64,000 nucleotides of DNA from Escherichia phage NRG-P0074: sequence record PQ480333.1; one strand, given 5' to 3'. Below are positions 2,664-47,702 of this stretch, in pieces. Under the pieces are notes generated by a model. That model worked only from the letters and a program-made list of their open reading frames with translations. It ran no database searches and was not told the DNA's origin. The position numbers were made by a program, and so were the translations under genes. Every line of letters begins with the position of its first letter. Position 1 is the stretch's first letter.

Positions 2664-3620
2664 ATGATGTTAGTTATTGGTTCTCGTGCACTTCACTATC
2701 ATGGTCTTATTGATTCTAGCGCTATCAAAAATAGCGATTGGGACTTTATTGCGGACCAAGGTTCTTGGAATGCATTCAAAAATCAAATGATGGGTGTATA
2801 TGTTCACCAAGATAACCCTGATGTTCAAGTTTTCAAATGCTTACATAATGGATGCGAAACTCATTTTGAAGCATATATTGTTCCGGCAATCACTAATGTC
2901 CGTGAATTAGTCGGTGAACTCACTCCTGAAGATTTCACGTCTTCTTATGACCTTTTAAAATACGCCAAGAAAAATTTGACTAAAGACTGTTTGAACGGGT
3001 TTTACTGGGCAACTCCTGAGATATGTCTTGCAATTAAGATGTCTCATCGTTTCAAGAAAAATAATCCATTCTTTTTAAAGACTATGAACCATATTCAGTA
3101 TCTTCGTGGTAAAGGTGTTACACTGAACGATGAACTTACTGAAATTATGCTGAAACGCCAGAAAGAAACCTTGAACTATGCTCACCCGGTTCTTGACACT
3201 TCTAAAAGTGCGTTCTTTAAAGATGACATCTATACATATGACCACGATACTATTCATGAAGCCATTGCACTAACAGACCGTCCAGCTTATACATTTTACA
3301 TGAAAGATGGTTCTGAAGTCATGACCTCACGTGAGAAGTTCGAATCATTACCAGAAATGGTCAAATTGGCTGGTGTATACGAAGAATCATGTGTACTAGC
3401 ATTAGAACGTTCTCAAATTCCTAATGACTTTAAAATTAACCCTGAAGCCAGTTTCATGATGGCATTAGAAAAAGTCTGCACAAGCATCACCTCCGGTTGG
3501 TTCCGTGAATACGCCTGGGAAAACTACAGCAAAGTAGTAAGTATGTACCAAAGCTTAGGACATGACGATTACGTCAAACGTTTCAAACAAAATTTCCATA
3601 TGGTAAAACCTTTCAAATAA
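2664..3620 (+). CDS. hypothetical protein (weak nucleotidyltransferase-like GS...DWD motif)
   Basis: 318 aa ORF with RBS GAGGAAAA; N-terminal IGSRALHYHG...SDWDF only loosely fits pol-beta NTase motif. Confidence 0.55.
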   Translation: MMLVIGSRALHYHGLIDSSAIKNSDWDFIADQGSWNAFKNQMMGVYVHQDNPDVQVFKCLHNGCETHFEAYIVPAITNVRELVGELTPEDFTSSYDLLKYAKKNLTKDCLNGFYWATPEICLAIKMSHRFKKNNPFFLKTMNHIQYLRGKGVTLNDELTEIMLKRQKETLNYAHPVLDTSKSAFFKDDIYTYDHDTIHEAIALTDRPAYTFYMKDGSEVMTSREKFESLPEMVKLAGVYEESCVLALERSQIPNDFKINPEASFMMALEKVCTSITSGWFREYAWENYSKVVSMYQSLGHDDYVKRFKQNFHMVKPFK

Positions 3621-3632
3621 TTTCGCAAAACT

Positions 3633-3670
3633 GTTTACACAATTATAGGACTATGTTACAGTAGTCCTAT
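3633..3670 (+). promoter_or_regulatory. early promoter with ATAGGACTA/TAGTCCTAT palindrome
   Basis: GTTTAC 3633-3638; ATAGGACTATGTTACAGTAGTCCTAT 3645-3670; RBS GAGGAG follows. Confidence 0.55.
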
Positions 3671-3690
3671 TAAAACATGAGGAGAATATT

Positions 3691-3996
3691 ATGAAATTAG
3701 GCGAAACCAACCGAATTGGTCTTTTAACAATATTTGCATCACTTTTTTACGCAGCTCTTTCTGTTGCAGTATTACAAAAGGCTTACAGTATGGATGGTGT
3801 TCCTGGTTTTGTATTCTTATCACCATTTTTGCTATTCGTTGGAGCTTTGTTATTATATGCCACGACTAGTTTCGACCATAATGTCTGGGTCAATTATAAA
3901 CGTAAATTGTCCGAAGAAGAACACGCAGAAGCTCGTAAAAAAGCTATTGAATCTACCAATCTAGAAAATTTCATTAAAGAATGTCGAGGAAAATAA
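3691..3996 (+). CDS. hypothetical membrane protein
   Basis: 101 aa; two hydrophobic helices (LLTIFASLFYAALSVAVL, FLSPFLLFVGALLLYA); RBS GAGGAG. Confidence 0.55.
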   Translation: MKLGETNRIGLLTIFASLFYAALSVAVLQKAYSMDGVPGFVFLSPFLLFVGALLLYATTSFDHNVWVNYKRKLSEEEHAEARKKAIESTNLENFIKECRGK

Positions 3997-10272: not shown

Positions 10273-10731
10273 ATGACTATCAATTCGGAAGTTTTTATCC
10301 GCCGTAATAAACTCCGTCGAATCTTTGAAACGGAGTTCCGCAAAATAAATGCCAGTATAAAAGACGCTGCAAAGTCTCTTGGACTACCAGGCTTTCATAT
10401 CAAGTATTCTCAACATCTCTTAGATCGTGCTATCCAGAGAGAAATAGATGAGAATTACGTTTTTGAATTATTTCGTAAAGTAAAAAATCATGTTAAAGAA
10501 GTTGCAGAATTTTTATCAATGCCGGCACGTCCAGATGTTGATGAAGATTTTGTCGAAGGTGTCGAATATCGCCCAGGACGTTTAGAAATAACTGATGGAA
10601 ATCTTTGGTTAGGACTTACAGTTTGTCGCGAAAATCCAGCATTCAAAATGAAGACTCTTCAATGCAGAATGGCTATTATTAACAGTAAACGACTACCAGG
10701 AAAAGCTTCTAAAGCAGTGATTAAAATCTAG
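10273..10731 (+). CDS. regB: site-specific endoribonuclease RegB
   Basis: MTINSEVFIRRNKLRR...LKYSQHLLDRAIQREIDE...RLPGKASKAVIK matches T4 RegB as I recall it. Confidence 0.93.
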   Translation: MTINSEVFIRRNKLRRIFETEFRKINASIKDAAKSLGLPGFHIKYSQHLLDRAIQREIDENYVFELFRKVKNHVKEVAEFLSMPARPDVDEDFVEGVEYRPGRLEITDGNLWLGLTVCRENPAFKMKTLQCRMAIINSKRLPGKASKAVIKI

Positions 10732-10739
10732 AGGTAAAC

Positions 10740-11282
10740 ATGAGAAAAGCACTACTCGCTGGTCTATTTGCTCTTTCATTATCAGCACATAGCTCCGAGC
10801 ATACTTTTAGTAATGTCCAACTCGATAACTTGAATTATGCTTATCAGTTTGGGGAACAGTTTTCTAAGGACGGAAAATTTAAAACGCATGAAAATATGCA
10901 TAAGAAAGGACTTGGATACATAATGGCCGCAATACTATGGCAGGAATCATCTGCCGGTATTAATCTTAAAGATAAGAAAGGTCACCATGCGTATGGAATG
11001 TTCCAAAATTATCTACCAACAATGAGGGCAAGAATTAACCAGCTTGGTTATAATATGACTGATGCCCAAATTAAGAAAATGCTATCTAAGCGGTCTAATT
11101 CAACCAGATGGGCTTATATCGAATTTTCTTATTGGTTAAATATACATAACGGGGATATAAGAAAAGCTATATCCTCATATAATGCGGGATGGAAGACAAG
11201 TGCTGGAAGTAAATATGCTTCTGAAGTCCTAGAAAAGGCTAATTACCTTAAATCAAATAAACTACTGGAAATAAAAGAATGA
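10740..11282 (+). CDS. secreted soluble lytic transglycosylase (SLT-domain) protein
   Basis: Signal peptide MRKALLAGLFALSLSA; SLT motifs WQESS, GMFQ, SYNAGW. Confidence 0.6.
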   Translation: MRKALLAGLFALSLSAHSSEHTFSNVQLDNLNYAYQFGEQFSKDGKFKTHENMHKKGLGYIMAAILWQESSAGINLKDKKGHHAYGMFQNYLPTMRARINQLGYNMTDAQIKKMLSKRSNSTRWAYIEFSYWLNIHNGDIRKAISSYNAGWKTSAGSKYASEVLEKANYLKSNKLLEIKE

Positions 11283-11626
11283 CCAAAATGTTGGCTTTAA
11301 TAGTTGGCTTGGTTTCATTTAACGCTCTTGCTAATACAACATATACTGATGTAACGGAGTATACAAACAGAACGGCGTCTGATTATTGTGGTAAAAGTCA
11401 AGAGTGTAAAGTAGATTTTTCACAAAAATTGTTATATGCGTATAAAGACGGAGAAAAAGATGGGGCGTCTAGTAGGTTCAAGGCGTCTACCTTAATTAAA
11501 AGATACTATAAAAAATGGCAAATATTAGAATGCTCTGTGGCGGAACCTAAAGATAAGGCAGCATGCAATTCTATGGTGGACCGTCTAGTTGACTCTTATA
11601 CTAGAGGACTTGCAGCAAGTGATTAA
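11279..11626 (+). CDS. hypothetical secreted protein
   Basis: 115 aa with N-terminal signal peptide MTKMLALIVGLVSFNALA. Confidence 0.5.
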   Translation: MTKMLALIVGLVSFNALANTTYTDVTEYTNRTASDYCGKSQECKVDFSQKLLYAYKDGEKDGASSRFKASTLIKRYYKKWQILECSVAEPKDKAACNSMVDRLVDSYTRGLAASD

Positions 11627-12083
11627 AAACTATATCAAGGGCGATATTGTCGCCCTGTTTTCTAAAGGTAATAATATTGCTCATGGGTGTAATTGTTTTC
11701 ATACAATGGGCGCTGGTGTGGCAGGACAATTAGCAAAGGCTTATCCAAAAATTCTGGAAGCCGATAAACTTCAAACCGAATTCGGAGACAAGTCTAAACT
11801 CGGGACTTATTCGGTTTATGAAAAATATTTTAAGACCCATAAAGCTTATTGCTTTAATCTTTATACACAGTTTGAGCCGGGACCTAATTTTGAGTACTCT
11901 GCTTTAATGAATTGTATAATAGAATTAAATGAATTCGGAAAGAATAAGATAATAAAGCCTGTAATTTATATGCCTAGAATTGGTGCAGGTATTGGTGGTG
12001 GAAACTGGGATATCATCGAAGAGATTTTAGATACGTATTCCACTAAACTAGAAATTGTGATTGTTGATTGGGAACCTAAATGA
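11619..12083 (+). CDS. macro-domain-like protein
   Basis: GNNIAHGCNCFHTMGAGVAGQLA and PRIGAGIGGGNW resemble macrodomain Gly-rich loops; GTG start with GAGGA 10 nt upstream (alternative TTG at 11589). Confidence 0.5.
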   Translation: MIKNYIKGDIVALFSKGNNIAHGCNCFHTMGAGVAGQLAKAYPKILEADKLQTEFGDKSKLGTYSVYEKYFKTHKAYCFNLYTQFEPGPNFEYSALMNCIIELNEFGKNKIIKPVIYMPRIGAGIGGGNWDIIEEILDTYSTKLEIVIVDWEPK

Positions 12084-12262
12084 AATTAACTAAAGAAGAG
12101 AAAGCTAAATTGTTCGAACTTATCCATGACCTATTGGATGAGCAAGCAGCCACCAATGCGTATGATGAATATGCTCCTTTGACGGATGAAGAATATCACG
12201 CATTGATGGAATCATTTGACAGGAAAGAACAAGAACTCATTGACTACGTGAATTCACTATAA
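12080..12262 (+). CDS. hypothetical protein
   Basis: 60 aa coupled ORF. Confidence 0.45.
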   Translation: MKLTKEEKAKLFELIHDLLDEQAATNAYDEYAPLTDEEYHALMESFDRKEQELIDYVNSL

Positions 12263-14168: not shown

Positions 14169-14699
14169 ATGAAAACTGTAATTGAAACGACTGAGTTGTT
14201 TGGTGATTTATGTATCGAAAAACGTGGTTATGCGTACGTTCTGACGCAAGAAGATGATGTTGTTACTATTCTTCCTATGGAACTAGACAAGATTTTGAAA
14301 CTCAATCCACCAGGTCATGCATCTGTAATTAACATTGATGAAGACCTCCAAGTTCGTTTTTATCACGGACTTTATAGTGGGGTTAATATCGAAACCGAAG
14401 ACGAATGTTTTTCTATTAATAATTGGAAAACATTTGTCACTAAGGTGAAAGAATTCATGGAATCTGAAACAGCCAAAAAGGCCAAACTTCAATGGGCTAA
14501 ATGCCGTAATGCTTTTATTACAAATCAGGACCGCCCTGACTATACAACAGTCCTAGGCGTTAATCCTTCTTATGAAGATGGTGATGTCGTAGTTATTCGC
14601 CAAATTGATGACCTTCGTCAACATATCATTACATTAGACAAAGATGAAGCAGTTGCTCTTAAAGCTTATCTCGATTCTATTATCCCAACTTTGAAATAA
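14169..14699 (+). CDS. hypothetical protein
   Basis: 176 aa ORF from ATG 14169. Confidence 0.5.
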   Translation: MKTVIETTELFGDLCIEKRGYAYVLTQEDDVVTILPMELDKILKLNPPGHASVINIDEDLQVRFYHGLYSGVNIETEDECFSINNWKTFVTKVKEFMESETAKKAKLQWAKCRNAFITNQDRPDYTTVLGVNPSYEDGDVVVIRQIDDLRQHIITLDKDEAVALKAYLDSIIPTLK

Positions 14700-14708
14700 G
14701 GAATTATT

Positions 14709-15185
14709 ATGATTATCAATGAAAACTCTTGGCACTTTAAAATTTATGCCGCGTTCAATAGTACATGGAATCGTCCGAAAACGTTATGTGCTTATTTTTG
14801 GAAAACGTTTCTCCCGGTATTGGCTGCTTCAATTATTGGATTTGCGATTTTAGCAGCAGTCACAATCATTGGCCAGGAAATTTTAACTAAATTCTTTGTT
14901 TTTAGCAGTCTATGGACATTAGTTCTGGCTTCAATTGGTGTAGGCATTTTAATGGTAGCAGTCATGGCTTTTATTGCTACCGGGTTGGTAATTGGTCCGT
15001 CTTGGTTGTTAGACAAATATAACGACAGAAAATATTATAAAGAAATTGAGCTCATTGCACAAAACCAAGAACGAATTAAAAATGGACTTGAGCCTATTGA
15101 ACGTAAGAAATCGATTATCGTTGAATTTTTAAAAGCTCGTAAAGCTAAAGTGTGTCCTACTCTTGAATACAAGCCAGGCAAATGA
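14709..15185 (+). CDS. hypothetical membrane protein
   Basis: Several hydrophobic helices; 158 aa. Confidence 0.5.
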   Translation: MIINENSWHFKIYAAFNSTWNRPKTLCAYFWKTFLPVLAASIIGFAILAAVTIIGQEILTKFFVFSSLWTLVLASIGVGILMVAVMAFIATGLVIGPSWLLDKYNDRKYYKEIELIAQNQERIKNGLEPIERKKSIIVEFLKARKAKVCPTLEYKPGK

Positions 15186-15964
15186 ATTATATCAAATGTT
15201 ATGATGCAATAATTCAACGAGGAAAACTTAGAGGCAGTGATAAGTCTGAGTTGAATTATTATACTGAATCCCATCACATAATCCCTTCATGTATTGGAGG
15301 GAGTGATGACCCGAGTAATAAAGTTTTATTGACTGCCAGGGAACATTTTATCGCTCATTGGTTATTATCAAAAATTCACCCAAACTCTGAAGGATTGATT
15401 TACGCTTACTGGGCGTTCTATAATTTAGGCGAAGATGCTTTAGGACGAAATCTTAAATTAACCTCAAGAGGCTATAAAGACGTAAGGGAAAAGTTTTCAG
15501 AAATTCACTCTAATAGAATGAAAGATATATGGGAATCACAAGAATATCGTGATAAGCGTTCAGCGACCATGAGCCTCCCTGAGATAAAGGCTAAAATGTC
15601 AGATTCTCAAATAGAGGCACAGAATAGACCTGAAGTTAAAGCAAAAATATCTACTGCTATCAAAGAGGCCTTTAAGAGAGATGATGTTAAAGAACGGCAT
15701 TCAAGAGCTGTTAAAAAGGCCCTAGATAATCCAGAAACTAAAAAGAGACAGTCTGAAGCGTCTAAAGCTAGACAACGAACTGGTAAACACTGGGAAGATT
15801 ATGATATGCTTTACGAACTTTGGATTAAATTGAATCGACCTAAGCGTGGGGCTTTCGGAACCTATATTAGTAAAATGGGTTATCCTAAATCAAATTACCA
15901 ACGCTTAATATTACAGTTCATTGAAGATTATGAAAGGAAAGTGAATAATGAAAACGATTGTTAA
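15182..15964 (+). CDS. HNH homing endonuclease (Mob family), free-standing mobile gene
   Basis: HNH motif ESHHIIPSCIGGSDDPSNKVLLTAREHFIAH; position equals T4 mobD between rI and nrdC.x. Confidence 0.8.
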   Translation: MNYIKCYDAIIQRGKLRGSDKSELNYYTESHHIIPSCIGGSDDPSNKVLLTAREHFIAHWLLSKIHPNSEGLIYAYWAFYNLGEDALGRNLKLTSRGYKDVREKFSEIHSNRMKDIWESQEYRDKRSATMSLPEIKAKMSDSQIEAQNRPEVKAKISTAIKEAFKRDDVKERHSRAVKKALDNPETKKRQSEASKARQRTGKHWEDYDMLYELWIKLNRPKRGAFGTYISKMGYPKSNYQRLILQFIEDYERKVNNENDC

Positions 15965-16934
15965 GGCTTACTTTGGTAGCCACCTTTATGGAACGTCTAC
16001 TCCTGAATCTGACGTCGATTTTAAAGAAATTTATGTCCCTCATGCTCGTGATATTTTGACCGGTAACGTTAAAGAACATATGAGCAAGAACACGAATAAC
16101 ACATCTTCTAAGAACACAAAAGACGACGTGGACCATGAGTTATATAGTCTCAAATATTTCTTTAAACTAGCTGCAGATGGTGAAACTGTCGCATTAGATA
16201 TGCTTCACACTCCACCAAGTCTAGTAGTTAAATCTGATTTGCCTGATGTATGGAAGTATATTCAAGATAACAGGTCTCGTTTCTATACCACTAACATGAA
16301 ATCTTATTTAGGGTATGTCCGTAAGCAAGCTTCTAAATACGGTGTCAAGGGTTCTCGACTGGCTGTTCTTCGTCAAGCCCTTAAACGTTCTAATGAATGG
16401 GGACAATACTTTGATAATGGTGCAGTAATTCGTTTATCACATATGAAGAATGTTCTGCCTGTAGGTGAATTTGCTTCATGGGTTGAAACCGAAAACGAGA
16501 AAACAGGTAAGCAAACATTCTATAATCTGTTAGACCGTAAATTCCAAGACACGTTAACCAATAAAGAGTTCAATGCCGTCCTGGTTAAACTTGAAGAGAA
16601 CTATGGTGAACGTGCTCGTAAGGCAGAAGCCAACGAAGGTATTGACTGGAAAGCATTGAGTCATGCATGTCGTGGTGGACTTCAACTATTGGAAATTTAC
16701 AAAACCGGCGACCTGGTTTACCCGCTTCAGGATGCTCCATTTATTCTCGATGTTAAGCTTGGTAAACATACGTTTAAAACCGTACAGGAATTCCTAGAAG
16801 ATATCGTTGACCAAGTTGAACATGCAGCAGAACAAGCTGCTAAGAACGGTATGCAACAAAAAGTAGATATGAGTTTCTGGGATGACTTCCTTGAACAAGT
16901 CTACTTAGAAAACCACAATTCGTACTATAAATGA
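15948..16934 (+). CDS. predicted nucleotidyltransferase (pol-beta superfamily)
   Basis: Classic GS-x10-DVD motif (AYFGSHLYGTSTPESDVDF); 328 aa. Confidence 0.6.
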   Translation: MKTIVKAYFGSHLYGTSTPESDVDFKEIYVPHARDILTGNVKEHMSKNTNNTSSKNTKDDVDHELYSLKYFFKLAADGETVALDMLHTPPSLVVKSDLPDVWKYIQDNRSRFYTTNMKSYLGYVRKQASKYGVKGSRLAVLRQALKRSNEWGQYFDNGAVIRLSHMKNVLPVGEFASWVETENEKTGKQTFYNLLDRKFQDTLTNKEFNAVLVKLEENYGERARKAEANEGIDWKALSHACRGGLQLLEIYKTGDLVYPLQDAPFILDVKLGKHTFKTVQEFLEDIVDQVEHAAEQAAKNGMQQKVDMSFWDDFLEQVYLENHNSYYK

Positions 16935-34259: not shown

Positions 34260-35948
34260 ATGAAATCATTTAAACTTAATAGAGTAAAATATAAAAATAT
34301 AATGTCAGTTGGTCAAAATGGAGTTGACATTCAATTAGATAAGGTTCAAAAAACTCTTATTACTGGACGAAATGGCGGTGGTAAATCTACGATGTTAGAA
34401 GCCATTACTTTCGGACTTTTCGGTAAACCATTTCGTGATGTTAAGAAAGGACAAATCATTAATAGCACGAACAAGAAAGAGCTCTTAGTTGAGCTTTGGA
34501 TGGAATTCGATGATAAAAAATACTTCATTAGACGTGGTCAAAAGCCCAATATTTTCGAAATCTCCGTTGACGGTGTTCGTCTCGATGAATCTGCCAGCAG
34601 TCGTGACTTCCAAGAAGAATTTGAACGTAGCATCGGAATGTCATACGCGTCTTTTAAACAAATCGTTGTGCTTGGGACGGCAGGGTATACCCCTTTCATG
34701 GCTCTTAGCACCCCTGCTCGTAGAAAACTTGTCGAAGACCTTTTAGAAGTCGGCACACTCGCTGAAATGGATAAAATCAATAAGTCTCAAGTTCGAGAAC
34801 TTAATTCCCAGGGACAAGTTCTCGATGCCAAGAAAGATGGTGTTATCCAACAAATTAAGATTTATAACGAGAATATCGAACGTCAAAAGAAATTATCTGG
34901 TGATAATGTAGCGCGTCTACAGAATATGTATGACGACCTAGCCAAAGAAGCTCGTTCATTAAAAGCAGAAATCGAAGAAGCTAATGAGCGACTACTTAAT
35001 ATCGTTCTTGACGAAGACCCTACTGAGGCATTCAACAAGATCGGACAAGAAGCATTCTTGATTAAATCTAAAATTGACTCATATAACAAAGTTATTAAGA
35101 TGTATCATGATGGCGGTACATGTCCTACTTGTGCATCACAGTTGCACCAGGGTGATCCTATTGTCTCTAAGATTACCGATAAGCTTCACGAATGTAATCA
35201 CTCATTCGAGCAACTTACATGTCACAGAGATAATCTGAGTGTCCTAGTGGACGAATATAGAGCTAATGTTAAGACTAAACAGGACCTTGCATCTGATATT
35301 CGTACCAAGAAACAAGCAATGATTGCCACTATTGATAAAGCTAAGAAAGTTAAAGCTGCAATAGAACAAGCCTCGGCGGAATTTATCGACCATGCCGATG
35401 AGATAGCTTTGCTTCAAAAAGAACTTGATAAAATCATTAAAACAAAATCGGATATCGTTCTTGAAAAATACCATCGCGGTATTATCACAGATATGTTAAA
35501 AGATTCTGGTATTAAAGGTGCTATCATTAAAAAATATGTGCCTCTGTTCAACAAGCAGATTAACCATTATCTTAAAATCATGGAAGCTGATTATGTGTTT
35601 TCTATTGACGAAGAATTCAATGAATCTATAAAATCACGTGGACGTGAAGAATTCAGTTATGCTTCGTTTAGTCAAGGTGAAAAGGCACGTATCGATATCG
35701 CATTGTTGTTTACATGGCGAGATATCGCTGAAAAGGTCTCTGGCGTTAGAATCAATACATTAATTATGGACGAAGTCATGGATTCCGCGACTGATTCTGA
35801 AGGTATTAAAGCTATTTCAACAATTCTTAACTCTCTAACCGATGCAAACGTGTTTATAATTAGTCACAGAGACCATGACCCACAAGCTTATGGACAACAT
35901 CTTCAAATGAGCAAAGTTGGACGATTTACTGTAATGAAAGCCTCTTAA
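34260..35948 (+). CDS. 46: recombination endonuclease subunit gp46 (Rad50/SbcC-like ATPase)
   Basis: Walker A GRNGGGKST, long coiled coil, signature SFSQGEKARIDIALLF, Walker B IMDEVMD. Confidence 0.93.
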   Translation: MKSFKLNRVKYKNIMSVGQNGVDIQLDKVQKTLITGRNGGGKSTMLEAITFGLFGKPFRDVKKGQIINSTNKKELLVELWMEFDDKKYFIRRGQKPNIFEISVDGVRLDESASSRDFQEEFERSIGMSYASFKQIVVLGTAGYTPFMALSTPARRKLVEDLLEVGTLAEMDKINKSQVRELNSQGQVLDAKKDGVIQQIKIYNENIERQKKLSGDNVARLQNMYDDLAKEARSLKAEIEEANERLLNIVLDEDPTEAFNKIGQEAFLIKSKIDSYNKVIKMYHDGGTCPTCASQLHQGDPIVSKITDKLHECNHSFEQLTCHRDNLSVLVDEYRANVKTKQDLASDIRTKKQAMIATIDKAKKVKAAIEQASAEFIDHADEIALLQKELDKIIKTKSDIVLEKYHRGIITDMLKDSGIKGAIIKKYVPLFNKQINHYLKIMEADYVFSIDEEFNESIKSRGREEFSYASFSQGEKARIDIALLFTWRDIAEKVSGVRINTLIMDEVMDSATDSEGIKAISTILNSLTDANVFIISHRDHDPQAYGQHLQMSKVGRFTVMKAS

Positions 35949-36661
35949 TGAGGCTTATATTTACAATTATCGAAATGCCAACGATGCATATTAGCAGGGA
36001 TCCCTATTTTATCGCAATGAGGACATTTAATTTTCTTGTCCTCTTTTTTCTTTCTGTTAGGATTTGATTTACAGAATTTTATATGTGGCTTTAACGCCGA
36101 TAACTTAGTAGTTAAGCCACAAAACGGGCAAGAATCTTCTTTCCAAATTTTCGTGGCCATGGTTTTAATTATTTTATCTTTTGTTTCTTGATCAAGTTTT
36201 ACTATTTTAGGCGTTGGACCTTGTTTACAATTATCAAAATGCCAACGTCGCATGTTTCCTTCAGTTCCAGTTAAACCACAATGTGGACAGGTAATCTTTG
36301 GTTTATTTTTTGCAGACTCGGACATTTTCTTACGGGTTTCAGCAGTGAATTCTTTATTCTTTTGAACTTCTTGATTCTTACGTCGAAGCCATCCAAATAA
36401 TTTGTTTTTGCTTCTATCTGCTTTAGGAGATGATATGGTCATCATACGAGCGGCATATATTAAAGAGGCATTATCTGGATGGATTTTTACCAACAGTTGA
36501 TGTGCCAAATAATGTTCTTCCGGTGTTAAGTCTACTAAGTTTAAAGCATCATCACTTCCACCTAAACATTGTGGTATAATGTGATGACGTTCTGTATAAC
36601 CATCTAAACTTCTTGATTTAGCATTGGTGATAAGCTTTTCGTATATTGAGTTATAATTCAT
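35945..36661 (-). CDS. HNH homing endonuclease with three C-terminal zinc-finger repeats, free-standing mobile gene
   Basis: Minus strand; HNH motif ERHHIIPQCLGGSDD...EEHYLAH; repeats CPHCG...WHFDNCK; convergent with gene 46 (4-bp overlap). Confidence 0.8.
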   Translation of the reverse strand: MNYNSIYEKLITNAKSRSLDGYTERHHIIPQCLGGSDDALNLVDLTPEEHYLAHQLLVKIHPDNASLIYAARMMTISSPKADRSKNKLFGWLRRKNQEVQKNKEFTAETRKKMSESAKNKPKITCPHCGLTGTEGNMRRWHFDNCKQGPTPKIVKLDQETKDKIIKTMATKIWKEDSCPFCGLTTKLSALKPHIKFCKSNPNRKKKEDKKIKCPHCDKIGIPANMHRWHFDNCKYKPH

Positions 36662-36738
36662 TTACTAAATCCTTATTTGATACAGCAACAGATAAATTGA
36701 TAAACCTATTTATATTGCTTTAATCACGGAGATTTATA

Positions 36739-36930
36739 ATGGCGGAGTATTCAACCGGACAACATCTTCTCGTTGTCCCTGAAATTAAAAGATATGTTTT
36801 GACCAATACGTTTTCAGGTGAAGAACATATTGTTACTGAACAAATGCTCAAATCTGCTTTTAAAGATGAGTATAATAAAATAATGTCTAATCGCAATTCC
36901 GCATGGACAGTTACCGACTTCTACGAATAA
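36739..36930 (+). CDS. hypothetical protein
   Basis: 63 aa. Confidence 0.5.
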   Translation: MAEYSTGQHLLVVPEIKRYVLTNTFSGEEHIVTEQMLKSAFKDEYNKIMSNRNSAWTVTDFYE

Positions 36931-40143: not shown

Positions 40144-42855
40144 ATGAAAGAATTTTACTTAACGGTTGAACAGATTGGTGATTCAATTTTTGAACGTTAC
40201 ATCGATTCTAATGGCCGTGAACGTACTCGTGAAGTAGAATATAAACCATCACTGTTTGCTCATTGTCCAGAAAGTCAGGCTACGAAATATTTCGATATCT
40301 ACGGTAAACCGTGTACTCGTAAGTTGTTCGCTAATATGCGTGATGCCTCCCAATGGATTAAACGCATGGAAGATATCGGACTTGAAGCACTTGGCATGGA
40401 CGATTTCAAATTGGCGTATTTGTCTGACACTTATAACTATGAAATCAAATACGACCATACAAAAATTCGTGTGGCTAACTTCGACATCGAAGTAACATCT
40501 CCGGATGGGTTCCCTGAGCCGTCACAAGCAAAACATCCGATTGATGCTATCACCCACTATGACTCAATTGACGACAGGTTCTACGTATTTGATCTATTGA
40601 ATTCTCCATACGGTAATGTGGAAGAATGGTCTATTGAAATCGCTGCTAAGCTTCAAGAACAAGGTGGTGATGAAGTTCCATCCGAAATTATCGATAAAAT
40701 CATTTATATGCCGTTCGATAACGAAAAAGAATTGTTGATGGAATATCTCAACTTCTGGCAACAGAAAACTCCTGTCATTTTGACTGGATGGAACGTTGAG
40801 TCATTTGATATTCCATATGTGTATAACCGAATCAAGAATATTTTTGGCGAATCTACTGCGAAACGTTTATCACCACATCGTAAAACTCGTGTTAAAGTTA
40901 TCGAAAACATGTATGGTTCTCGTGAAATCATTACATTGTTCGGTATCTCTGTTCTTGATTACATTGACCTTTACAAAAAATTCTCTTTTACCAATCAACC
41001 GTCGTATTCTCTGGATTACATTTCAGAATTTGAATTGAACGTTGGTAAACTGAAATATGACGGTCCTATTTCTAAACTTCGCGAAAGTAATCATCAACGA
41101 TATATAAGCTATAACATCATCGACGTATATCGTGTATTGCAAATTGATGCTAAGCGTCAGTTCATTAACTTGAGCTTGGACATGGGTTATTATGCTAAGA
41201 TACAGATTCAATCTGTGTTTAGCCCAATTAAAACATGGGATGCTATTATTTTTAATAGCCTTAAAGAGCAGAACAAGGTGATTCCACAAGGTCGTTCTCA
41301 CCCGGTTCAACCTTATCCTGGCGCTTTTGTTAAGGAACCTATTCCAAATCGATACAAATATGTAATGAGTTTCGACCTTACATCTCTGTATCCAAGTATT
41401 ATTCGCCAAGTGAATATTAGCCCAGAAACAATAGCAGGAACGTTTAAAGTAGCTCCATTGCATGATTATATTAACGCTGTTGCTGAACGTCCTTCTGATG
41501 TGTACAGTTGTTCTCCTAACGGCATGATGTATTATAAAGACCGTGACGGTGTTGTTCCAACTGAAATCACTAAAGTCTTTAATCAACGTAAAGAACATAA
41601 AGGTTACATGCTTGCGGCTCAACGTAATGGTGAAATAATTAAAGAGGCATTGCATAATCCTAATCTTTCTGTTGACGAACCGTTAGATGTTGATTATCGT
41701 TTCGACTTCAGTGATGAGATTAAAGAAAAGATTAAAAAGTTGTCTGCTAAATCTCTTAATGAAATGTTGTTTAGAGCTCAACGTACTGAAGTTGCAGGTA
41801 TGACTGCCCAAATTAACCGTAAATTGCTTATCAACTCACTTTATGGTGCACTTGGAAACGTTTGGTTCCGTTATTATGATTTGCGTAATGCTACTGCAAT
41901 CACAACATTTGGTCAAATGGCTTTACAGTGGATTGAACGTAAAGTTAATGAATATCTGAATGAAGTTTGTGGTACAGAAGGCGAAGCTTTCGTTCTTTAT
42001 GGTGATACAGACTCCATTTACGTATCTGCAGATAAAATTATTGATAAGGTTGGTGAATCTAAATTCCGTGATACCAACCATTGGGTAGACTTCTTAGATA
42101 AGTTCGCTCGTGAACGTATGGAACCTGCTATTGATAGAGGTTTCCGTGAAATGTGCGAATACATGAACAATAAACAACACTTAATGTTCATGGACCGAGA
42201 AGCTATCGCTGGTCCTCCGCTCGGTTCTAAAGGTATTGGTGGATTTTGGACTGGTAAGAAACGTTATGCATTAAACGTGTGGGATATGGAAGGTACTCGT
42301 TACGCTGAGCCTAAACTCAAAATCATGGGACTAGAGACTCAGAAATCTTCGACCCCTAAAGCAGTACAGAAAGCTCTTAAAGAATGTATTCGTCGTATGC
42401 TTCAAGAAGGTGAAGAATCATTACAAGAATATTTTAAAGAGTTTGAAAAAGAATTCCGTCAATTGAATTATATTAGCATCGCGGCGGTATCTTCTGCGAA
42501 TAACATTGCTAAATATGATGTAGGTGGATTCCCTGGTCCTAAATGCCCGTTCCATATTCGCGGAATTCTGACGTATAACCGGGCTATCAAAGGTAATATC
42601 GATGCACCGCAAGTTGTAGAAGGTGAAAAAGTATATGTTCTGCCTTTACGTGAAGGAAACCCATTCGGTGATAAATGTATCGCATGGCCTTCTGGTACTG
42701 AAATCACAGATTTAATTAAAGACGACGTACTTCATTGGATGGACTACACTGTTCTCCTTGAGAAGACATTTATTAAACCACTTGAAGGATTCACATCAGC
42801 AGCGAAACTCGATTACGAGAAGAAAGCATCTCTGTTCGATATGTTCGATTTTTGA
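40144..42855 (+). CDS. 43: DNA polymerase gp43 (family B)
   Basis: 903 aa; exonuclease motifs FDIEV, YNIIDV; polymerase motifs DLTSLYPSI, YGDTDS; N-terminus MKEFYLTVEQIGDSIFERYIDSNGRERTREVEYKPSLFAHCPESQATKYFDIYGKPC corresponds to the RB69-type polymerase as I remember it. Confidence 0.98.
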   Translation: MKEFYLTVEQIGDSIFERYIDSNGRERTREVEYKPSLFAHCPESQATKYFDIYGKPCTRKLFANMRDASQWIKRMEDIGLEALGMDDFKLAYLSDTYNYEIKYDHTKIRVANFDIEVTSPDGFPEPSQAKHPIDAITHYDSIDDRFYVFDLLNSPYGNVEEWSIEIAAKLQEQGGDEVPSEIIDKIIYMPFDNEKELLMEYLNFWQQKTPVILTGWNVESFDIPYVYNRIKNIFGESTAKRLSPHRKTRVKVIENMYGSREIITLFGISVLDYIDLYKKFSFTNQPSYSLDYISEFELNVGKLKYDGPISKLRESNHQRYISYNIIDVYRVLQIDAKRQFINLSLDMGYYAKIQIQSVFSPIKTWDAIIFNSLKEQNKVIPQGRSHPVQPYPGAFVKEPIPNRYKYVMSFDLTSLYPSIIRQVNISPETIAGTFKVAPLHDYINAVAERPSDVYSCSPNGMMYYKDRDGVVPTEITKVFNQRKEHKGYMLAAQRNGEIIKEALHNPNLSVDEPLDVDYRFDFSDEIKEKIKKLSAKSLNEMLFRAQRTEVAGMTAQINRKLLINSLYGALGNVWFRYYDLRNATAITTFGQMALQWIERKVNEYLNEVCGTEGEAFVLYGDTDSIYVSADKIIDKVGESKFRDTNHWVDFLDKFARERMEPAIDRGFREMCEYMNNKQHLMFMDREAIAGPPLGSKGIGGFWTGKKRYALNVWDMEGTRYAEPKLKIMGLETQKSSTPKAVQKALKECIRRMLQEGEESLQEYFKEFEKEFRQLNYISIAAVSSANNIAKYDVGGFPGPKCPFHIRGILTYNRAIKGNIDAPQVVEGEKVYVLPLREGNPFGDKCIAWPSGTEITDLIKDDVLHWMDYTVLLEKTFIKPLEGFTSAAKLDYEKKASLFDMFDF

Positions 42856-43712: not shown

Positions 43713-45398
43713 ATGAAAAAAGCTGTTATTCTTGGTGCTGGACTGGCAACTCGTTTATATCCAATAACGCATCATATTCCTAAGGTGCTTGTTAACTATA
43801 AACAAGACACTATTCTGAGCAATTTGTATACAATTTATTCTGACCTTGGCGCAGATGAAATTATTGTAGTAGTTCATTCAAAATTTGCTGAAACTGTTCG
43901 AGCTTATTGTGAGCAAGAAGGGTTCAATGTGACTATTCGTACAGTTGATGAAGCGTATGGTTCTGCTTATGCTCTTGCTAAATTACACAAAGATTTAGAC
44001 GGCCATAATGTAATTGTTAACTGGTGTGATATTATTCCGGATTTTGGTTCATGGTCTTGGAATGTTAACGCAATCTATGTTAAGGGTGACGAATGTCGAT
44101 ATAATTTCGACGGTGAAAATATCACTAACGTAGGTTCAACAGGTGGTAATGTTGTAGGAATTTATCAGTTCAAAGACTGGGAATTCTATATGGGTTCTAC
44201 TGATGAGGAAATTCATGAATACTGCAAAGGACGTGATTTCGTAGAATTCCTTTACGGCAGCGCATTCAATAAATCAGAGCTTATGAATCTAATTGATTTA
44301 GGTGATATGCCTAAACTTGAAAAAGCTCATGAAGTTCGTGAACTTAATCGTAGTTTTAATGCAGTTGAAATTGGTGAAGAAACTGTAACTAAATTCGCAT
44401 TAACCGAACAGGGACGAGCTCTTCAGAAAGATGAGATTTCATGGTATCTTAAAGTGAAATCAGATTCAGTTCCTCAGTTAGTTTCTGTTAATGAAAATAA
44501 CTTTGAAATGGAACGCATTAAAGGTAAGCCGGCATTTGAATATATTAAATCCAAATCAAGTCTTGCTCGTCCACAAATTGTTGATGCAATTTTAGATGCA
44601 CTGAAATTCAGCACAGACACTTATTTTGTAAGTCCTGAAACTGTTCGTCGTGATTTCACTAAAGAATTCTATACGAAAGTTATTGATCGTTGTGAAAGCA
44701 TTCAACCATTGATTGATTCATTTGGTAAAATCACACATGTGAACTACACTAAGATTGGACGTCTGAAGCCAATGCTGAAACAAGCTTTAGAACATCTTAT
44801 TCGTTATCATAACCGTTCTCAGGGACAGTACTCTGTTATTCATGGTGACCCGAACTTCAGTAATACTATGATTACTGATAACGGCGAAGTTAAGTTTATC
44901 GACCCTCGTGGATATTTTGGCGAAACCAAGATTTACGGGCCAAAATTGTACGATGAAGCTAAAGTGCTTTATGCTGTTTCAGGTTATGATGAATTCAACG
45001 CTAATCCGACCTGGGGACAGTTTACTATTGATGAAACAACTTGTAATGTGACTATTAACATCAATCCATTAGTTTACAAATATGGAAAGATGAGTTCGTT
45101 TAACGAGTATCATCATTTGGCAGTGGCAATTATCTGGATTGCATTAGGTGGTTATTTCAAGAATAATCCACTTAAAGCGGTAGCCGCATATTATAAAGGT
45201 ATGGAACTTCTGACTAAGCAATTACGTAACATGGGCCGTGTACTTCAGGACGGCTCTATTAGTTATGACGTAGCAGAACCTGTAACGGCTACTCTGATTA
45301 CAAAAAATCCTGGTAAATGGGTACTAACTGATAAAGAAACTGGTGTTTCCTATCGTCCAATCGGTGGCGATATCACTCATCAATGGGAACGAATTTGA
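43713..45398 (+). CDS. bifunctional sugar-1-phosphate nucleotidyltransferase / sugar kinase (APH-MtnK-like)
   Basis: N-term RmlA/GalU-like ILGAGLATRLYPIT...PK; C-term protein-kinase-like catalytic loop VIHGDPNFSN and metal-binding IDPRGYFG. Confidence 0.7.
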   Translation: MKKAVILGAGLATRLYPITHHIPKVLVNYKQDTILSNLYTIYSDLGADEIIVVVHSKFAETVRAYCEQEGFNVTIRTVDEAYGSAYALAKLHKDLDGHNVIVNWCDIIPDFGSWSWNVNAIYVKGDECRYNFDGENITNVGSTGGNVVGIYQFKDWEFYMGSTDEEIHEYCKGRDFVEFLYGSAFNKSELMNLIDLGDMPKLEKAHEVRELNRSFNAVEIGEETVTKFALTEQGRALQKDEISWYLKVKSDSVPQLVSVNENNFEMERIKGKPAFEYIKSKSSLARPQIVDAILDALKFSTDTYFVSPETVRRDFTKEFYTKVIDRCESIQPLIDSFGKITHVNYTKIGRLKPMLKQALEHLIRYHNRSQGQYSVIHGDPNFSNTMITDNGEVKFIDPRGYFGETKIYGPKLYDEAKVLYAVSGYDEFNANPTWGQFTIDETTCNVTININPLVYKYGKMSSFNEYHHLAVAIIWIALGGYFKNNPLKAVAAYYKGMELLTKQLRNMGRVLQDGSISYDVAEPVTATLITKNPGKWVLTDKETGVSYRPIGGDITHQWERI

Positions 45399-46144
45399 TA
45401 CATTATCTCTACAAAACTACTAATCTTATAAACGGTAAAGTTTATTTAGGAATGCACTCGGCTGAAGAAGCCGAGCCTTTAGATTTATATAAAGGTTCTG
45501 GTAAATTATATAAAAAGGCTGAAAGGAAATACGGGAAGGAAAATTTTCTTAAAGAAATCATTTCCTACCATAGCTCGAGAGAAGAATTAAAAATAGCTGA
45601 AAAGGCTCTAATAACATTAGACATAGTTAAAGACCCAAATTATTACAATCTTAAAACTGGTGGCGAAGGCGGTTCTGACGGGTTATCCCAAAGGTCCAAG
45701 GATAAAATTTCTAAGGCAAATAAAGGACGTTTAGTTGGTGATAAAAACCCAAGATGGGGTAAAACTTTGTCAGCTGAATCTATAGCTAGGGGTAAAGAAA
45801 AGCACAGGAGGTATGGTAAACCTGCATTACATGGTCTAAAGATTAATGTAGATGGCAAATATTATGAATCCTGTCGGGAAGCGGCTAAAGATTTGGGTAT
45901 ATCTTCTGCCACGATTCAAAAGAGAGTAAAATCGCCTAAATATCTTAATTATCGATATCAGGACGAAAGCAAAAATGCTCACAAGTCTCAAAAATTTGTT
46001 AAAATAAACGAAAATTACTATGAATCTCTTAGGATAGCTGAAAAGAAAACGGGTATTCCTAGAAAGCGTATAGCTGATAATATTAAAAATTCTATTGAAG
46101 GATATTGCTATGAAACCATTACATCTTTGCGTGGACGTCGATGA
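45383..46144 (+). CDS. GIY-YIG homing endonuclease (Seg-like), free-standing mobile gene
   Basis: N-terminal GIY-YIG module HYLYKTTNLINGKVYLGMH; Lys-rich C-terminal DNA-binding region; overlaps both neighbours. Confidence 0.7.
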   Translation: MGTNLIHYLYKTTNLINGKVYLGMHSAEEAEPLDLYKGSGKLYKKAERKYGKENFLKEIISYHSSREELKIAEKALITLDIVKDPNYYNLKTGGEGGSDGLSQRSKDKISKANKGRLVGDKNPRWGKTLSAESIARGKEKHRRYGKPALHGLKINVDGKYYESCREAAKDLGISSATIQKRVKSPKYLNYRYQDESKNAHKSQKFVKINENYYESLRIAEKKTGIPRKRIADNIKNSIEGYCYETITSLRGRR

Positions 46145-46484
46145 TTGTATAACAGAGTGGAATAACAATCGTGATTACGTGAACTTCAAACCAGACGTCG
46201 AAATGGTGACTGCCATTAATGCCCTGTATGATGCAGGGCATACCATAACGCTTTACACTGCTCGCGGTATGAAGTCAGTAGGTCCTGGTCGTATAGCAAT
46301 TGACATTCTCCCGAGTCTGATTCAGAACTTGGCAAACATTGGCTTGAAGTACCATAATTTGCTAACACATAAACCAGTATATGATTGGATTATCGACGAC
46401 AAAGCTATGCGTCCTGACGAATTCAAAGCTCTTATGAATAAAGGCGAATTCGAAACATTTAAATCATATAAACCGAATCTATAA
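46110..46484 (+). CDS. putative HAD-superfamily phosphatase (small, KdsC-size)
   Basis: Motif I-like LCVDVDDCIT, motif II LYTAR, motif III K in THKP, motif IV IIDDK; alternative start 46095. Confidence 0.45.
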   Translation: MKPLHLCVDVDDCITEWNNNRDYVNFKPDVEMVTAINALYDAGHTITLYTARGMKSVGPGRIAIDILPSLIQNLANIGLKYHNLLTHKPVYDWIIDDKAMRPDEFKALMNKGEFETFKSYKPNL

Positions 46485-46541
46485 TAATTTAAGTAAGACC
46501 TGCAAAAACCATCGCATCAATTAACGTGAGATGCAAAAAAA

Positions 46542-47702
46542 ATGAATACTTTTAAAATCGGAACGAATTTTGATTTAGCTCTTCTTGATAAAATCGTAGA
46601 GCTCAATAAAACTTATCCTAATAGCTTGATAAACGAAGTATACGGCTCTACAAGAGAAATGGCTTTTGTAGCAGCCAGACCTGATTTTAGGCTTCCTGAC
46701 GTTGACAAAAAGATGTTAGAAGATTACGTTAAACGTTGTAACGAATTAGGTATTTGCTTTAACTATACACTCAACACGATAAATCCTGGTTCAAAAAGAG
46801 AACTAGTTGAGTGGAAGAAGAAAGCTATTCAGGATTATGTTCAGTATCTTTGGTCAATAGGCGTATGGCGTATTACTATCGCTAACCCTGTTGTTATGGA
46901 AATTGTTCGTGAAGTCAATAAAGACATTGAGATTGAAGTTTCAACAATTCTACATGTCGATGCTGTAACTCAAATCAAATACTTGCATGACCAATATAAT
47001 ATCAAAAAGGTCTGCTGTGGAATTCATAAGAACCGTTCAGTTTCTTTCCTGAAGCGTGCAGCAGAGTTTTGCAATAAGAACAATATAATATTTGAAGTTC
47101 TTGTAAATGAGTTCTGTTCTAATGCTGGTAAAGGGTATACAACACATTGTAGCTATCGTGACTCTTGCTATATTTTCCATAGTACTGATGTTACAGCTGA
47201 TGATGCTAAATCCTTAAACGGATATCCTATGCAGCACTGTATTAAAGCTCGTGATACAGACCCATTTAACTGGTTGAGAACTCGTTTTGTTCGTCCTCAA
47301 GATTTGAAACTTTATAATGATATTGGTATCACTCAATTCAAAGTTTCAGGACGTACAGGTAGCACAGACTACATTTTGAAAGTTCTTGAAGCATACGCTT
47401 CTGAAAAGTTTGAAGGTAATTTGTTAGAACTGTGGAAGCCTTTAGAGACTATTTTCACTCTTGAAAACGAAACTGAGTTTTCACATACAGTAAATATTGA
47501 AACCTCTTTGTTAGATGGCTTTTTAGAAAAAAGGTGGTTCAGACATCCAGATTTCGATTGTGCTAATGAAATCTGCGGGACGACGTGTACATATTGTGAA
47601 AGATATTATAAACGTCAATTATCTAAAAACGGGTTAGCAGAAAACTCTATATCTATTATTGATATAACTAACTCTGATGACGCTTTGAGGTACCCGGAAT
47701 GA
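46542..47702 (+). CDS. hypothetical Cys-rich protein (possible Fe-S/metal-binding enzyme, U32-like fold not excluded)
   Basis: 386 aa; Cys cluster EFCSNAGKGYTTHCSYRDSC and C-terminal CANEICGTTCTYC; no Rossmann or radical-SAM CxxxCxxC. Confidence 0.55.
   Translation: MNTFKIGTNFDLALLDKIVELNKTYPNSLINEVYGSTREMAFVAARPDFRLPDVDKKMLEDYVKRCNELGICFNYTLNTINPGSKRELVEWKKKAIQDYVQYLWSIGVWRITIANPVVMEIVREVNKDIEIEVSTILHVDAVTQIKYLHDQYNIKKVCCGIHKNRSVSFLKRAAEFCNKNNIIFEVLVNEFCSNAGKGYTTHCSYRDSCYIFHSTDVTADDAKSLNGYPMQHCIKARDTDPFNWLRTRFVRPQDLKLYNDIGITQFKVSGRTGSTDYILKVLEAYASEKFEGNLLELWKPLETIFTLENETEFSHTVNIETSLLDGFLEKRWFRHPDFDCANEICGTTCTYCERYYKRQLSKNGLAENSISIIDITNSDDALRYPE

Follow-up and report, generated by a model that had tools for sequence, protein, structure and literature searches.

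A predicted Seg-type GIY-YIG homing endonuclease gene inserted at the afhE/afhF junction of the arabinosylation cassette of a T-even-type phage

The characterised free-standing homing endonucleases of phage T4 usually cut hundreds to thousands of base pairs (bp) away from their own genes (PMC2988022), and T4 SegA has been reported to be active as an endonuclease (PMC2988022). In phage RB69, a 2026 study described gp55 as an arabinose-5-P isomerase, gp48 as a dCMP 5-hydroxylating enzyme, gp52:53 as an AfhE-like kinase/UDP-arabinose pyrophosphorylase and gp51 as an AfhF-like phosphatase, the four proteins jointly leading to arabinosylated 5-hydroxycytosine (PMC13326640). Here we describe a gene at 45383-46144 of a 64,000-nucleotide (nt) stretch of Escherichia phage NRG-P0074 DNA (record PQ480333.1; the whole stretch is referred to as the window), which lies between the afhE-like and afhF-like genes of such a sugar cassette and is predicted to encode a GIY-YIG homing endonuclease. 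Close relatives already carry GenBank labels to this effect ('homing endonuclease' for a20_158, 'putative GIY-YIG family homing endonuclease' in phage JM17), and our literature search found no paper mentioning an endonuclease at the afhE/afhF site. The protein is thus an uncharacterised Seg-family addition to the many free-standing homing endonucleases of T-even phages.

The window contains an unbroken open reading frame (ORF) with an ATG start at 45383-46144 on the + strand (253 amino acids, aa), exactly the interval at which the original prediction had placed a Seg-like GIY-YIG gene. Family models, conserved residues and fold matches agree with that assignment, and the product is predicted to be a free-standing Seg-type GIY-YIG homing endonuclease composed of a catalytic domain, a NUMOD3 linker and helix-turn-helix modules. 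Residues are numbered from the TTG codon at 45395, which gives a protein of 249 aa. Its features are as follows.

45383-46144, + strand: endonuclease ORF as annotated in GenBank relatives, 253 aa, with its ATG in the shared flank
45395-45397, + strand: probable native start codon TTG, beginning at the first base of the insert and forming a TTGA overlap with the afhE-like stop codon TGA (45396-45398)
45395-45673, + strand: GIY-YIG catalytic domain, aa 1-93, with conserved Y6, Y17, Y32xGSG, E69 and N85
45695-45805, + strand: NUMOD3-type linker/minor-groove module, aa 101-137 (Pfam NUMOD3)
45839-45934, + strand: first NUMOD1/I-TevI-type helix-turn-helix module, aa 149-180 (Pfam I-TevI_DNA-bd, NUMOD1)
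45998-46093, + strand: second, diverged helix-turn-helix repeat, aa 202-233, on weak evidence

Among the Pfam models, I-TevI_DNA-bd matched above its cutoff (3.6e-8), accompanied by NUMOD1 (3e-5), NUMOD3 and, weakly, SegE_GIY-YIG. The protein also matched PHROG 314 'homing endonuclease' (3.4e-43) and NCBIfam TIGR01453 (4e-17; 63 bits against a cutoff of 56), and these family-model scores are far beyond chance. PADLOC returned 'HEase' models only (8.6e-24), and we therefore rejected an anti-phage defence GIY-YIG nuclease such as PD-T4-3, whose structure (9u75) was a weak fold match (E 0.49, TM-score 0.21). Residues Y6, N10, Y17, G19, Y32, G34, G36, G47, E69 and N85 are invariant in 60 homologues. 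When the profile was aligned by hhalign with the N-terminal sequence of I-TevI, Y6, Y17, E69 and N85 were paired with I-TevI Y6, Y17, E75 and N90. Further along the protein, the stretch KISKANKGR in the NUMOD3 region is invariant among orthologues.

Kinship of the catalytic domain was detected by profile and structure model, beyond the reach of plain phmmer, which against the Protein Data Bank (PDB) gave a marginal match to the I-TevI DNA-binding domain only. An AlphaFold2 model built on 60 homologues had a mean predicted local distance difference test (pLDDT) score of 85, with block means of 91-98 over the catalytic domain (aa 1-90). The modelled N-terminal domain has the order strand-strand-helix-strand-helix, and helix-turn-helix units occupy the C-terminal half. 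The top Foldseek matches were the I-TevI DNA-binding domain (PDB 1i3j; 5.5e-4, and 2.2e-4 in a profile search) and the catalytic domain of I-TevI (1mk0/1ln0; probability 1.0, with a target-normalised TM-score of 0.65). The second helix-turn-helix repeat aligns internally with the first module at 10 of 31 positions (BLOSUM62 score 52), and the model predicts a helix-turn-helix there as well (helices 206-219 and 223-233). An Rfam scan of 44500-47000 found no RNA family and no group I intron. The protein is therefore not a group I intron-encoded endonuclease: the intron is absent, no host gene is interrupted and the likeness to TIGR01453 is one of sequence only.

Comparison with genomes that lack the gene defines an insertion with sharp borders. 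By blastn and by reading of both junctions, homology to RB69 ends at 45394 and resumes at 46119, and the breakpoints are identical against phages F27, NHEP29 and JS09. The elements involved are listed here.

43713-45398, + strand: upstream afhE-like gene for a bifunctional arabinose-5-P kinase/UDP-arabinose pyrophosphorylase, homologue of RB69 gp52:53, 561 aa
45395-46118, + strand: inserted segment of 724 bp, replacing 25 bp of the RB69-type empty site (CTAATGCACCATGTAGAAAACATGC)
46098-46112, + strand: translation initiation region of the afhF-like gene, inside the endonuclease codons E-G-Y-C-Y-E
46110-46484, + strand: downstream afhF-like gene for a HAD phosphatase, homologue of RB69 gp51, 124 aa, ATG start
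46119-46136, + strand: diverged but homologous 18 bp at the right junction, afhF-like codons 4-9, with five fixed differences between carriers and non-carriers

In the RB69 empty site the two cassette genes overlap as ATC-TAATG, and in genomes without the endonuclease gene generally the flanking ORFs are separate, intact and abutting or overlapping. The insertion spans the interval from the last sense codon of the afhE-like gene to the codons of the catalytic DxD motif of the afhF-like gene and leaves both neighbours intact. On the left, the C-terminus of the afhE-like protein (...HQWERI) is unchanged, its last codon and stop having passed from ATC TAA to ATT TGA. On the right, the afhF-like protein begins MKPLHLCVDVDD in the window and MHHVENMLNLCFDVDD in RB69. 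The insert accordingly supplies replacements for what it displaces, namely another stop codon for afhE and, for afhF, another ribosome-binding site and start codon together with its initial 9-10 codons. The afhF Shine-Dalgarno sequence AAGGA (46098-46102) and the ATG (46110-46112), both read from the sequence, lie within the endonuclease ORF, whose final 35 nt also carry, in another frame, the afhF start and first 11 codons (MKPLHLCVDVD). The motif (A)AGGAT.TTG.TATGAA is kept in all orthologues of the enterobacterial clade of the endonuclease tree (clade A; the Acinetobacter clade is clade B). The earlier claims that the gene sits inside the sugar cassette, here between afhE-like and afhF-like genes, and that it overlaps the 3' end of a nucleotidyltransferase-kinase gene and the 5' end of a HAD gene are borne out. 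The upstream overlap with the 561-aa ORF (end 45398) measures 16 nt if translation begins at ATG 45383 and 4 nt (TTGA) if it begins at TTG 45395, and the downstream overlap with the HAD-like gene (ATG 46110) is 35 nt; the ORF listing gives the start of the latter gene as TTG 46095.

Near-isogenic pairs with and without the gene were available in five groups (Mosigvirus, the phiP4-3 group, Bragavirus, Dhakavirus and Acj61-like phages), with flank identities as follows.

Window versus RB69, F27, NHEP29 and JS09 (without the gene): 98-99%
Carrier locus L009 versus Proteus phage phiP4-3 (without the gene): 98-99.6%
Carrier locus L007 versus Bragavirus PM2/SJ_PmiM (without the gene): 94-96%
Carrier locus L008 versus Dhakavirus VR5 (without the gene): 94-96%
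Carrier locus L010 versus locus L026 of an Acj61-like Acinetobacter phage (without the gene): 84-89%

In 5 of 5 pairs the additional sequence is bounded by the final codon of the upstream gene on one side and by the codons of the afhF DxD motif on the other. Recurrent presence and absence at one site across genera, each time at low frequency, is the signature expected of a mobile homing endonuclease. A comparison of the locus among relatives, as the original prediction had proposed, thus yields what a mobile gene would be expected to leave: patchy presence at one fixed site in otherwise collinear genomes.

Of the 214 phage records with cassette DNA, about 155 reach Mosigvirus-level identity; endonuclease DNA was found in three (a20, BEU50 and JM17, at 99.3-100% identity), or 3 of about 155 Mosigvirus records (about 2%); with the window, these make up our four carrier genomes. 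The next protein relative is Ac42p079 of Acinetobacter phage Ac42 (Twarogvirinae), at 51% identity, beyond which come partial matches of about 30-40%. A search of a large protein database returned a tight group (P0002-P0008) at 53-71% identity, past which bit scores drop from at least 244 to below 100 and matches mostly cover the N-terminal domain only. Orthologues at 50-71% identity thus occur in seven other T4-like lineages, represented by Ac42 and six metagenomic contigs. All lie directly upstream of an afhF-like gene, and on their other side stands either afhE or a small T4_Y16D/arn.3-like ORF. With Mosigvirus included, the gene recurs at this site in at least eight lineages, in each of which it is rare. 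In IMG/VR, 1 of 28 loci with an afhF-like gene has an orthologue, that of Ac42.

Seven single-nucleotide polymorphisms (SNPs) separate the four Mosigvirus copies, all seven synonymous at third codon positions, and the proteins are 100% identical; orthologue pairs with unsaturated synonymous divergence have ratios of non-synonymous to synonymous substitution rates (dN/dS) of 0.12-0.25. The gene is, as judged from these patterns, under purifying selection. Endonuclease identities roughly follow those of the adjacent afhF protein, which suggests long residence within each phage group rather than recent jumps between groups.

For clues to the target, a 25-kb region was compared between four carriers and four non-carriers among the Mosigvirus genomes. 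Near the gene, fixed differences cluster only at 46122-46136, within the diverged 18 bp: a 1-nt indel at 46122 and four substitutions at 46130, 46131, 46133 and 46136, which include a change from Phe TTT to Val GTG directly before the catalytic Asp. The left flank has no fixed difference between the two classes within about 1 kb of the junction. Across lineages, 27 of 29 gene-less alleles encode Phe (TTT/TTC) immediately ahead of the Asp nucleophile, as does none of eight carrier lineages, all eight of which have Val, Leu or Ile there (hypergeometric P of about 1e-6, uncorrected for phylogeny). In all four near-isogenic pairs of clade A, the window pair among them, the presence of the gene coincides with a switch from Phe to Val or Leu. 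From this we infer a site of recognition or cleavage that overlaps both the junction and the motif-I codons of afhF, and suppose that the changes in carriers would protect them; the afhF-like gene is the probable target gene.

The sequences flanking the insert bear on how much DNA moves with it. Over 464 bp on the right, the window is closest to a non-carrier, mobillu (99.4%), ahead of the carriers BEU50 (99.1%) and JM17 (98.9%); over 495 bp on the left it is 99.6% identical to the non-carriers PhAPEC2 and moha and to the carrier BEU50 alike. Upstream, JM17 has a distinct haplotype, with 25 differences from the window per 500 bp at 42.8 kb as against 2 for RB69. The gene is therefore found in differing sequence contexts, accompanied by no more than 18 bp of linked sequence, and the comparison revealed no hitch-hiking of cassette alleles. 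This pattern of 18 linked bp on the right and none on the left fits either very short conversion tracts or later recombination.

In our view the gene probably encodes a free-standing homing endonuclease of the Seg-type GIY-YIG group, with specificity for the junction between afhE and afhF in the arabinosylation cassette, and we postulate the following course of events. The gene would be co-transcribed with the cassette and translated at a low level from TTG 45395 or ATG 45383, coupled to termination of afhE. In a mixed infection with a relative lacking the gene, the protein would bind the empty afhE/afhF junction or the 5' region of afhF and make a double-strand break in the gene-less genome, and T4-type recombination repair would then copy the insertion from the carrier genome. 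Carriers themselves would be protected, since they have lost 25 bp of the site and hold five changes in the 18 bp that follow; the most conspicuous candidate for a protective change is that from TTT-GAY to STG-GAC (S being G or C) immediately ahead of the codon for the Asp nucleophile. Conversion tracts seem to be very short, and the element would accordingly move with almost no flanking cassette sequence.

Several observations weigh against this reading. First, the segment of I-TevI that contains R27 falls in a 9-residue gap of the profile alignment, and the invariant Y32-x-G34-S35-G36 stands there instead. T4 SegA has the same Y-x-G-S-G motif and likewise no counterpart of the R27 segment; because SegA is reported to be active, the subfamily with this motif in place of the R27 segment is, by analogy, probably functional. 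Second, a frequency of about 2% in Mosigvirus speaks against strong drive. Third, with just four genomes per class, fixed differences also include an isolated SNP at 46527 and a cluster at 54206-54248. Lastly, the Acinetobacter pair L010/L026 has no Phe/Val difference, the junction differences may merely travel with the endonuclease ORF, which they overlap, and the distant cutting of the characterised T4 enzymes means that the junction may not be the cleavage site.

These last points together make up the alternative that survives best, namely an active homing endonuclease that, like T4 SegF and SegG, cuts at a distance, in afhF, in afhE or farther away, so that the junction polymorphisms merely overlap its ORF and travel with it. 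The diverged 18 bp do lie within the 35-nt overlap of the two ORFs, and the clade B pair is without a junction difference at the Phe/Val codon, as this alternative would have it. On the other hand, immune carriers would need a site difference specific to them, and within about 1 kb on either side clustered ones occur only at 46122-46136; moreover, 0.5-kb flanks that are equally near to non-carriers point to short tracts and a break near the insertion point. We therefore regard distant cutting as a minority reading, with cleavage at the junction preferred. Locus L026 itself (about 2990-3040) lacks the gene, yet its codon ahead of the catalytic Asp is the 'carrier-type' one for Val (GTG GAC), which could be the footprint of a past gene loss or a naturally resistant target.

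The purifying selection described above also bears on whether the gene still moves. It could instead be domesticated or 'stuck', retained because its deletion would remove the ribosome-binding site, start and first codons of afhF, and spread passively by ordinary recombination. The afhF translation initiation region is indeed inside the endonuclease ORF, embedded host signals are a recognised route of retention for T4 seg and mob genes (PMC2988022), the frequency of the gene is low (about 2%) and no flanking haplotype is linked to it. Such retention would explain the persistence of the DNA but not purifying selection over a whole 249-aa protein including its catalytic residues, and presence/absence polymorphism at the same site in five lineages is hard to obtain without active invasion; we accordingly judge a gene that has lost its mobility to be improbable. 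A further proposal is that of an old endonuclease lineage that co-diverged with afhF over at least two T4-like subfamilies (Tevenvirinae and Twarogvirinae) and that became hard to delete in the enterobacterial clade through the embedded afhF signals. We hold this to be doubtful, if somewhat less so than immobility; if true, it would amount to a translational 'addiction' of an anti-restriction pathway (arabinosyl-5-hydroxycytosine) to a selfish gene.

The weakest explanation is that of the original prediction, in which the endonuclease favours one-way inheritance of the sugar cassette as a whole and spreads it between related phages, even to those without a cassette: co-conversion of flanking markers by homing endonucleases does occur when T4 is crossed with T2 (PMC2988022, PMC2330249), but records with the cassette outnumber those with the endonuclease about 70-fold (214 versus 3), 8 of 8 endonuclease lineages lie inside existing cassettes, gene-linked sequence stops 18 bp from the right junction, the flanks match non-carriers as well as or better than carriers, and a cassette-less genome without homologous flanks could not be repaired from such a donor, so that we give this idea almost no credence. 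Rather, the gene appears from its distribution to invade cassettes that are already present and not to drive their spread; cassette-less genomes would not be invadable because homing needs homologous flanks.

The start codon of the endonuclease gene merits separate comment. All seven orthologues begin M/V/L-(I/V/L)-H-Y at the position equivalent to TTG 45395, and an NTGA start/stop overlap is found in three other lineages as well: L006, L007 (GTGA) and L010 (TTGA). TTG 45395 is thus the likely native start, and ATG 45383 the alternative; because the insertion begins only at 45395, that ATG lies in flank common to phages without the gene. The TTGA overlap suggests low-level translation coupled to afhE termination. 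Promoter and terminator scans gave no sigma-70 promoter or terminator above shuffled-sequence level for the gene, and no T4 late promoter (TATAAATA) was found near it, the nearest being that of a separate HNH gene at 36.7 kb. We had considered a regulatory hairpin (a 7-bp stem at 45457-45475 with a weak stem over the TTG start, z = -2.3), and dropped it because the 45457-45475 hairpin is shared only by the closest orthologue, L006, and is absent from the other orthologues. A tblastn search for paralogues within the window returned nothing but a 44-aa match at 16530-16661, which falls in an unrelated ORF of 328 aa and was put down to chance.

The surrounding window is that of a T-even-type phage, with the DNA polymerase gene (gp43) at 40144-42855 followed by a block of sugar-metabolism genes, and RB69 and further Mosigvirus genomes match the locus at 98-99% identity. 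The 43713-45398 product has an NTP-transferase domain followed by a kinase-like domain; its functional assignment also draws on PMC6024577. That of 46110-46484 matches a capsule-biosynthesis HAD phosphatase family, below cutoff. The RB69 reference splits two genes of this region, as ORF053c/052c (10415-12101 in our locus L019) and ORF047c/046c (14698-15598), and their counterparts in the window are intact, at 43713-45398 (561 aa) and 48697-49596 (299 aa); both splits have been attributed to sequencing errors in the old RB69 record (PMC6024577, PMC13326640). The gene 3' of the dCMP-modifying enzyme is the same in the window and a20, with its start annotated differently.

Two further observations concern the afhF-like gene. 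In loci L022, L024 and L025 (each at about 3363-3992), which stand for three other T4-like lineages, a different GIY-YIG/NUMOD3 endonuclease, about 31% identical, stands immediately 3' of it, and because these endonucleases adjoin its downstream end, homing endonucleases seem to land at both ends of afhF. An apparent afhF frameshift at the putative target was noted in the record of Proteus phage Pm5461 (L038/L050). From the 3' end of afhE to the start of afhF (about 1790-1900), this record has many single-base insertions relative to PM2 and SJ_PmiM, which produce both an apparent truncation of afhE and the frameshift of afhF; because such insertions abound across the region, we treated the frameshift as an artefact of sequence quality.

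Elsewhere in the window and in its relatives, other mobile-looking genes and polymorphisms were seen. A second such gene (35945-36661, - strand, 238 aa) lies between genes 46 and 45.2 within an insertion of about 35938-36743. Its product has an HNH-like HHIIP...N...H motif and Cys-rich repeats, matches a PADLOC HEase model (2.6e-7) and corresponds to a20_170 'homing endonuclease'; the T4 late-promoter consensus TATAAATA occurs at 36707-36714 (- strand), 46 nt upstream of its start. The gene is present in a20 and BEU50 and absent from JM17, F27, NHEP29, JS09 and RB69. At 54206-54248, six differences in 43 bp separate the four carriers from the four non-carriers, with an alignment break at 54216/54217. 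The cluster adjoins an indel region near dmd, where a small gp61.4-like ORF is annotated in non-carriers and not in a20 or JM17, and probably reflects population structure among the few genomes sampled rather than any effect of the endonuclease. Several metagenomic or Acinetobacter relatives have a split DNA polymerase gene (L008; L012; Ac42, with gene '43B', in L003); a GIY-YIG ORF lies between the two polymerase halves in L008 (1400-2098) and a NUMOD3-containing ORF just upstream of the C-terminal half in L012 (928-2052, - strand). JM17 (L015, 3132-4023) has two extra ORFs between rpbA and gene 45, lacking in the other Mosigvirus loci examined, which are another small presence/absence polymorphism of the region.

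The five natural pairs and the candidate target (the TTT-GAY codons that immediately precede the catalytic Asp in the afhF-like phosphatase) offer a way to map a new Seg specificity, and the locus is useful for asking how elements insert at a gene junction without harming an anti-restriction pathway. In RB69-like therapeutic or engineering phages, it marks a site where recombination between co-infecting strains may be locally stimulated. SegB was reported in 2026 to amplify anti-defence loci (PMC13096335); by analogy, though no less doubtfully than in the 'addiction' proposal, breaks made by the present endonuclease could promote amplification or exchange of a DNA-modification cassette under host-defence pressure. 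The view of how the arabinosylation cassette spreads is left unchanged.

Among known systems, T4 SegA resembles the window protein in its catalytic subfamily (45% identity over aa 3-112, E 2e-23), with Y-x-G-S-G and then NUMOD3, and in being free-standing in the variable gp43-to-uvsX region of the T-even map. It differs in its C-terminal DNA-binding region, which is unrelated (no significant alignment past aa 112), and in its place and target: SegA lies between beta-gt and uvsX and cuts uvsX, whereas here the presumed target is afhF. I-TevI of the T4 td intron (PDB 1mk0, 1ln0, 1i3j) is the best structural match for both domains and shares the two-domain plan of an N-terminal GIY-YIG nuclease, an extended linker and a C-terminal helix-turn-helix. 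Unlike I-TevI, the window gene lies outside any intron, its product has no counterpart of the R27/H31 segment, its linker is without a cysteine cluster and hence without a zinc finger, and a second helix-turn-helix repeat is present. Ac42p079 and P0002-P0008 are full-length orthologues with the same domain order, located immediately 5' of an afhF-like gene in the cassette. Within the Acinetobacter clade (Ac42, L010 and L012), however, the proteins end ...HDED* 1-2 nt before the afhF ATG, without overlap, and the upstream neighbour is a small T4_Y16D/arn.3-like ORF in Ac42 and L010 and afhE in L012. Lastly, in T4 segG, segA, segE, mobB and mobC, as in the window gene, a signal of the downstream host gene lies inside the endonuclease ORF, which would penalise deletion (PMC2988022); the T4 genes embed a promoter, whereas the window gene embeds a translational signal, made up of the afhF Shine-Dalgarno sequence and start codon together with the initial 11 codons.

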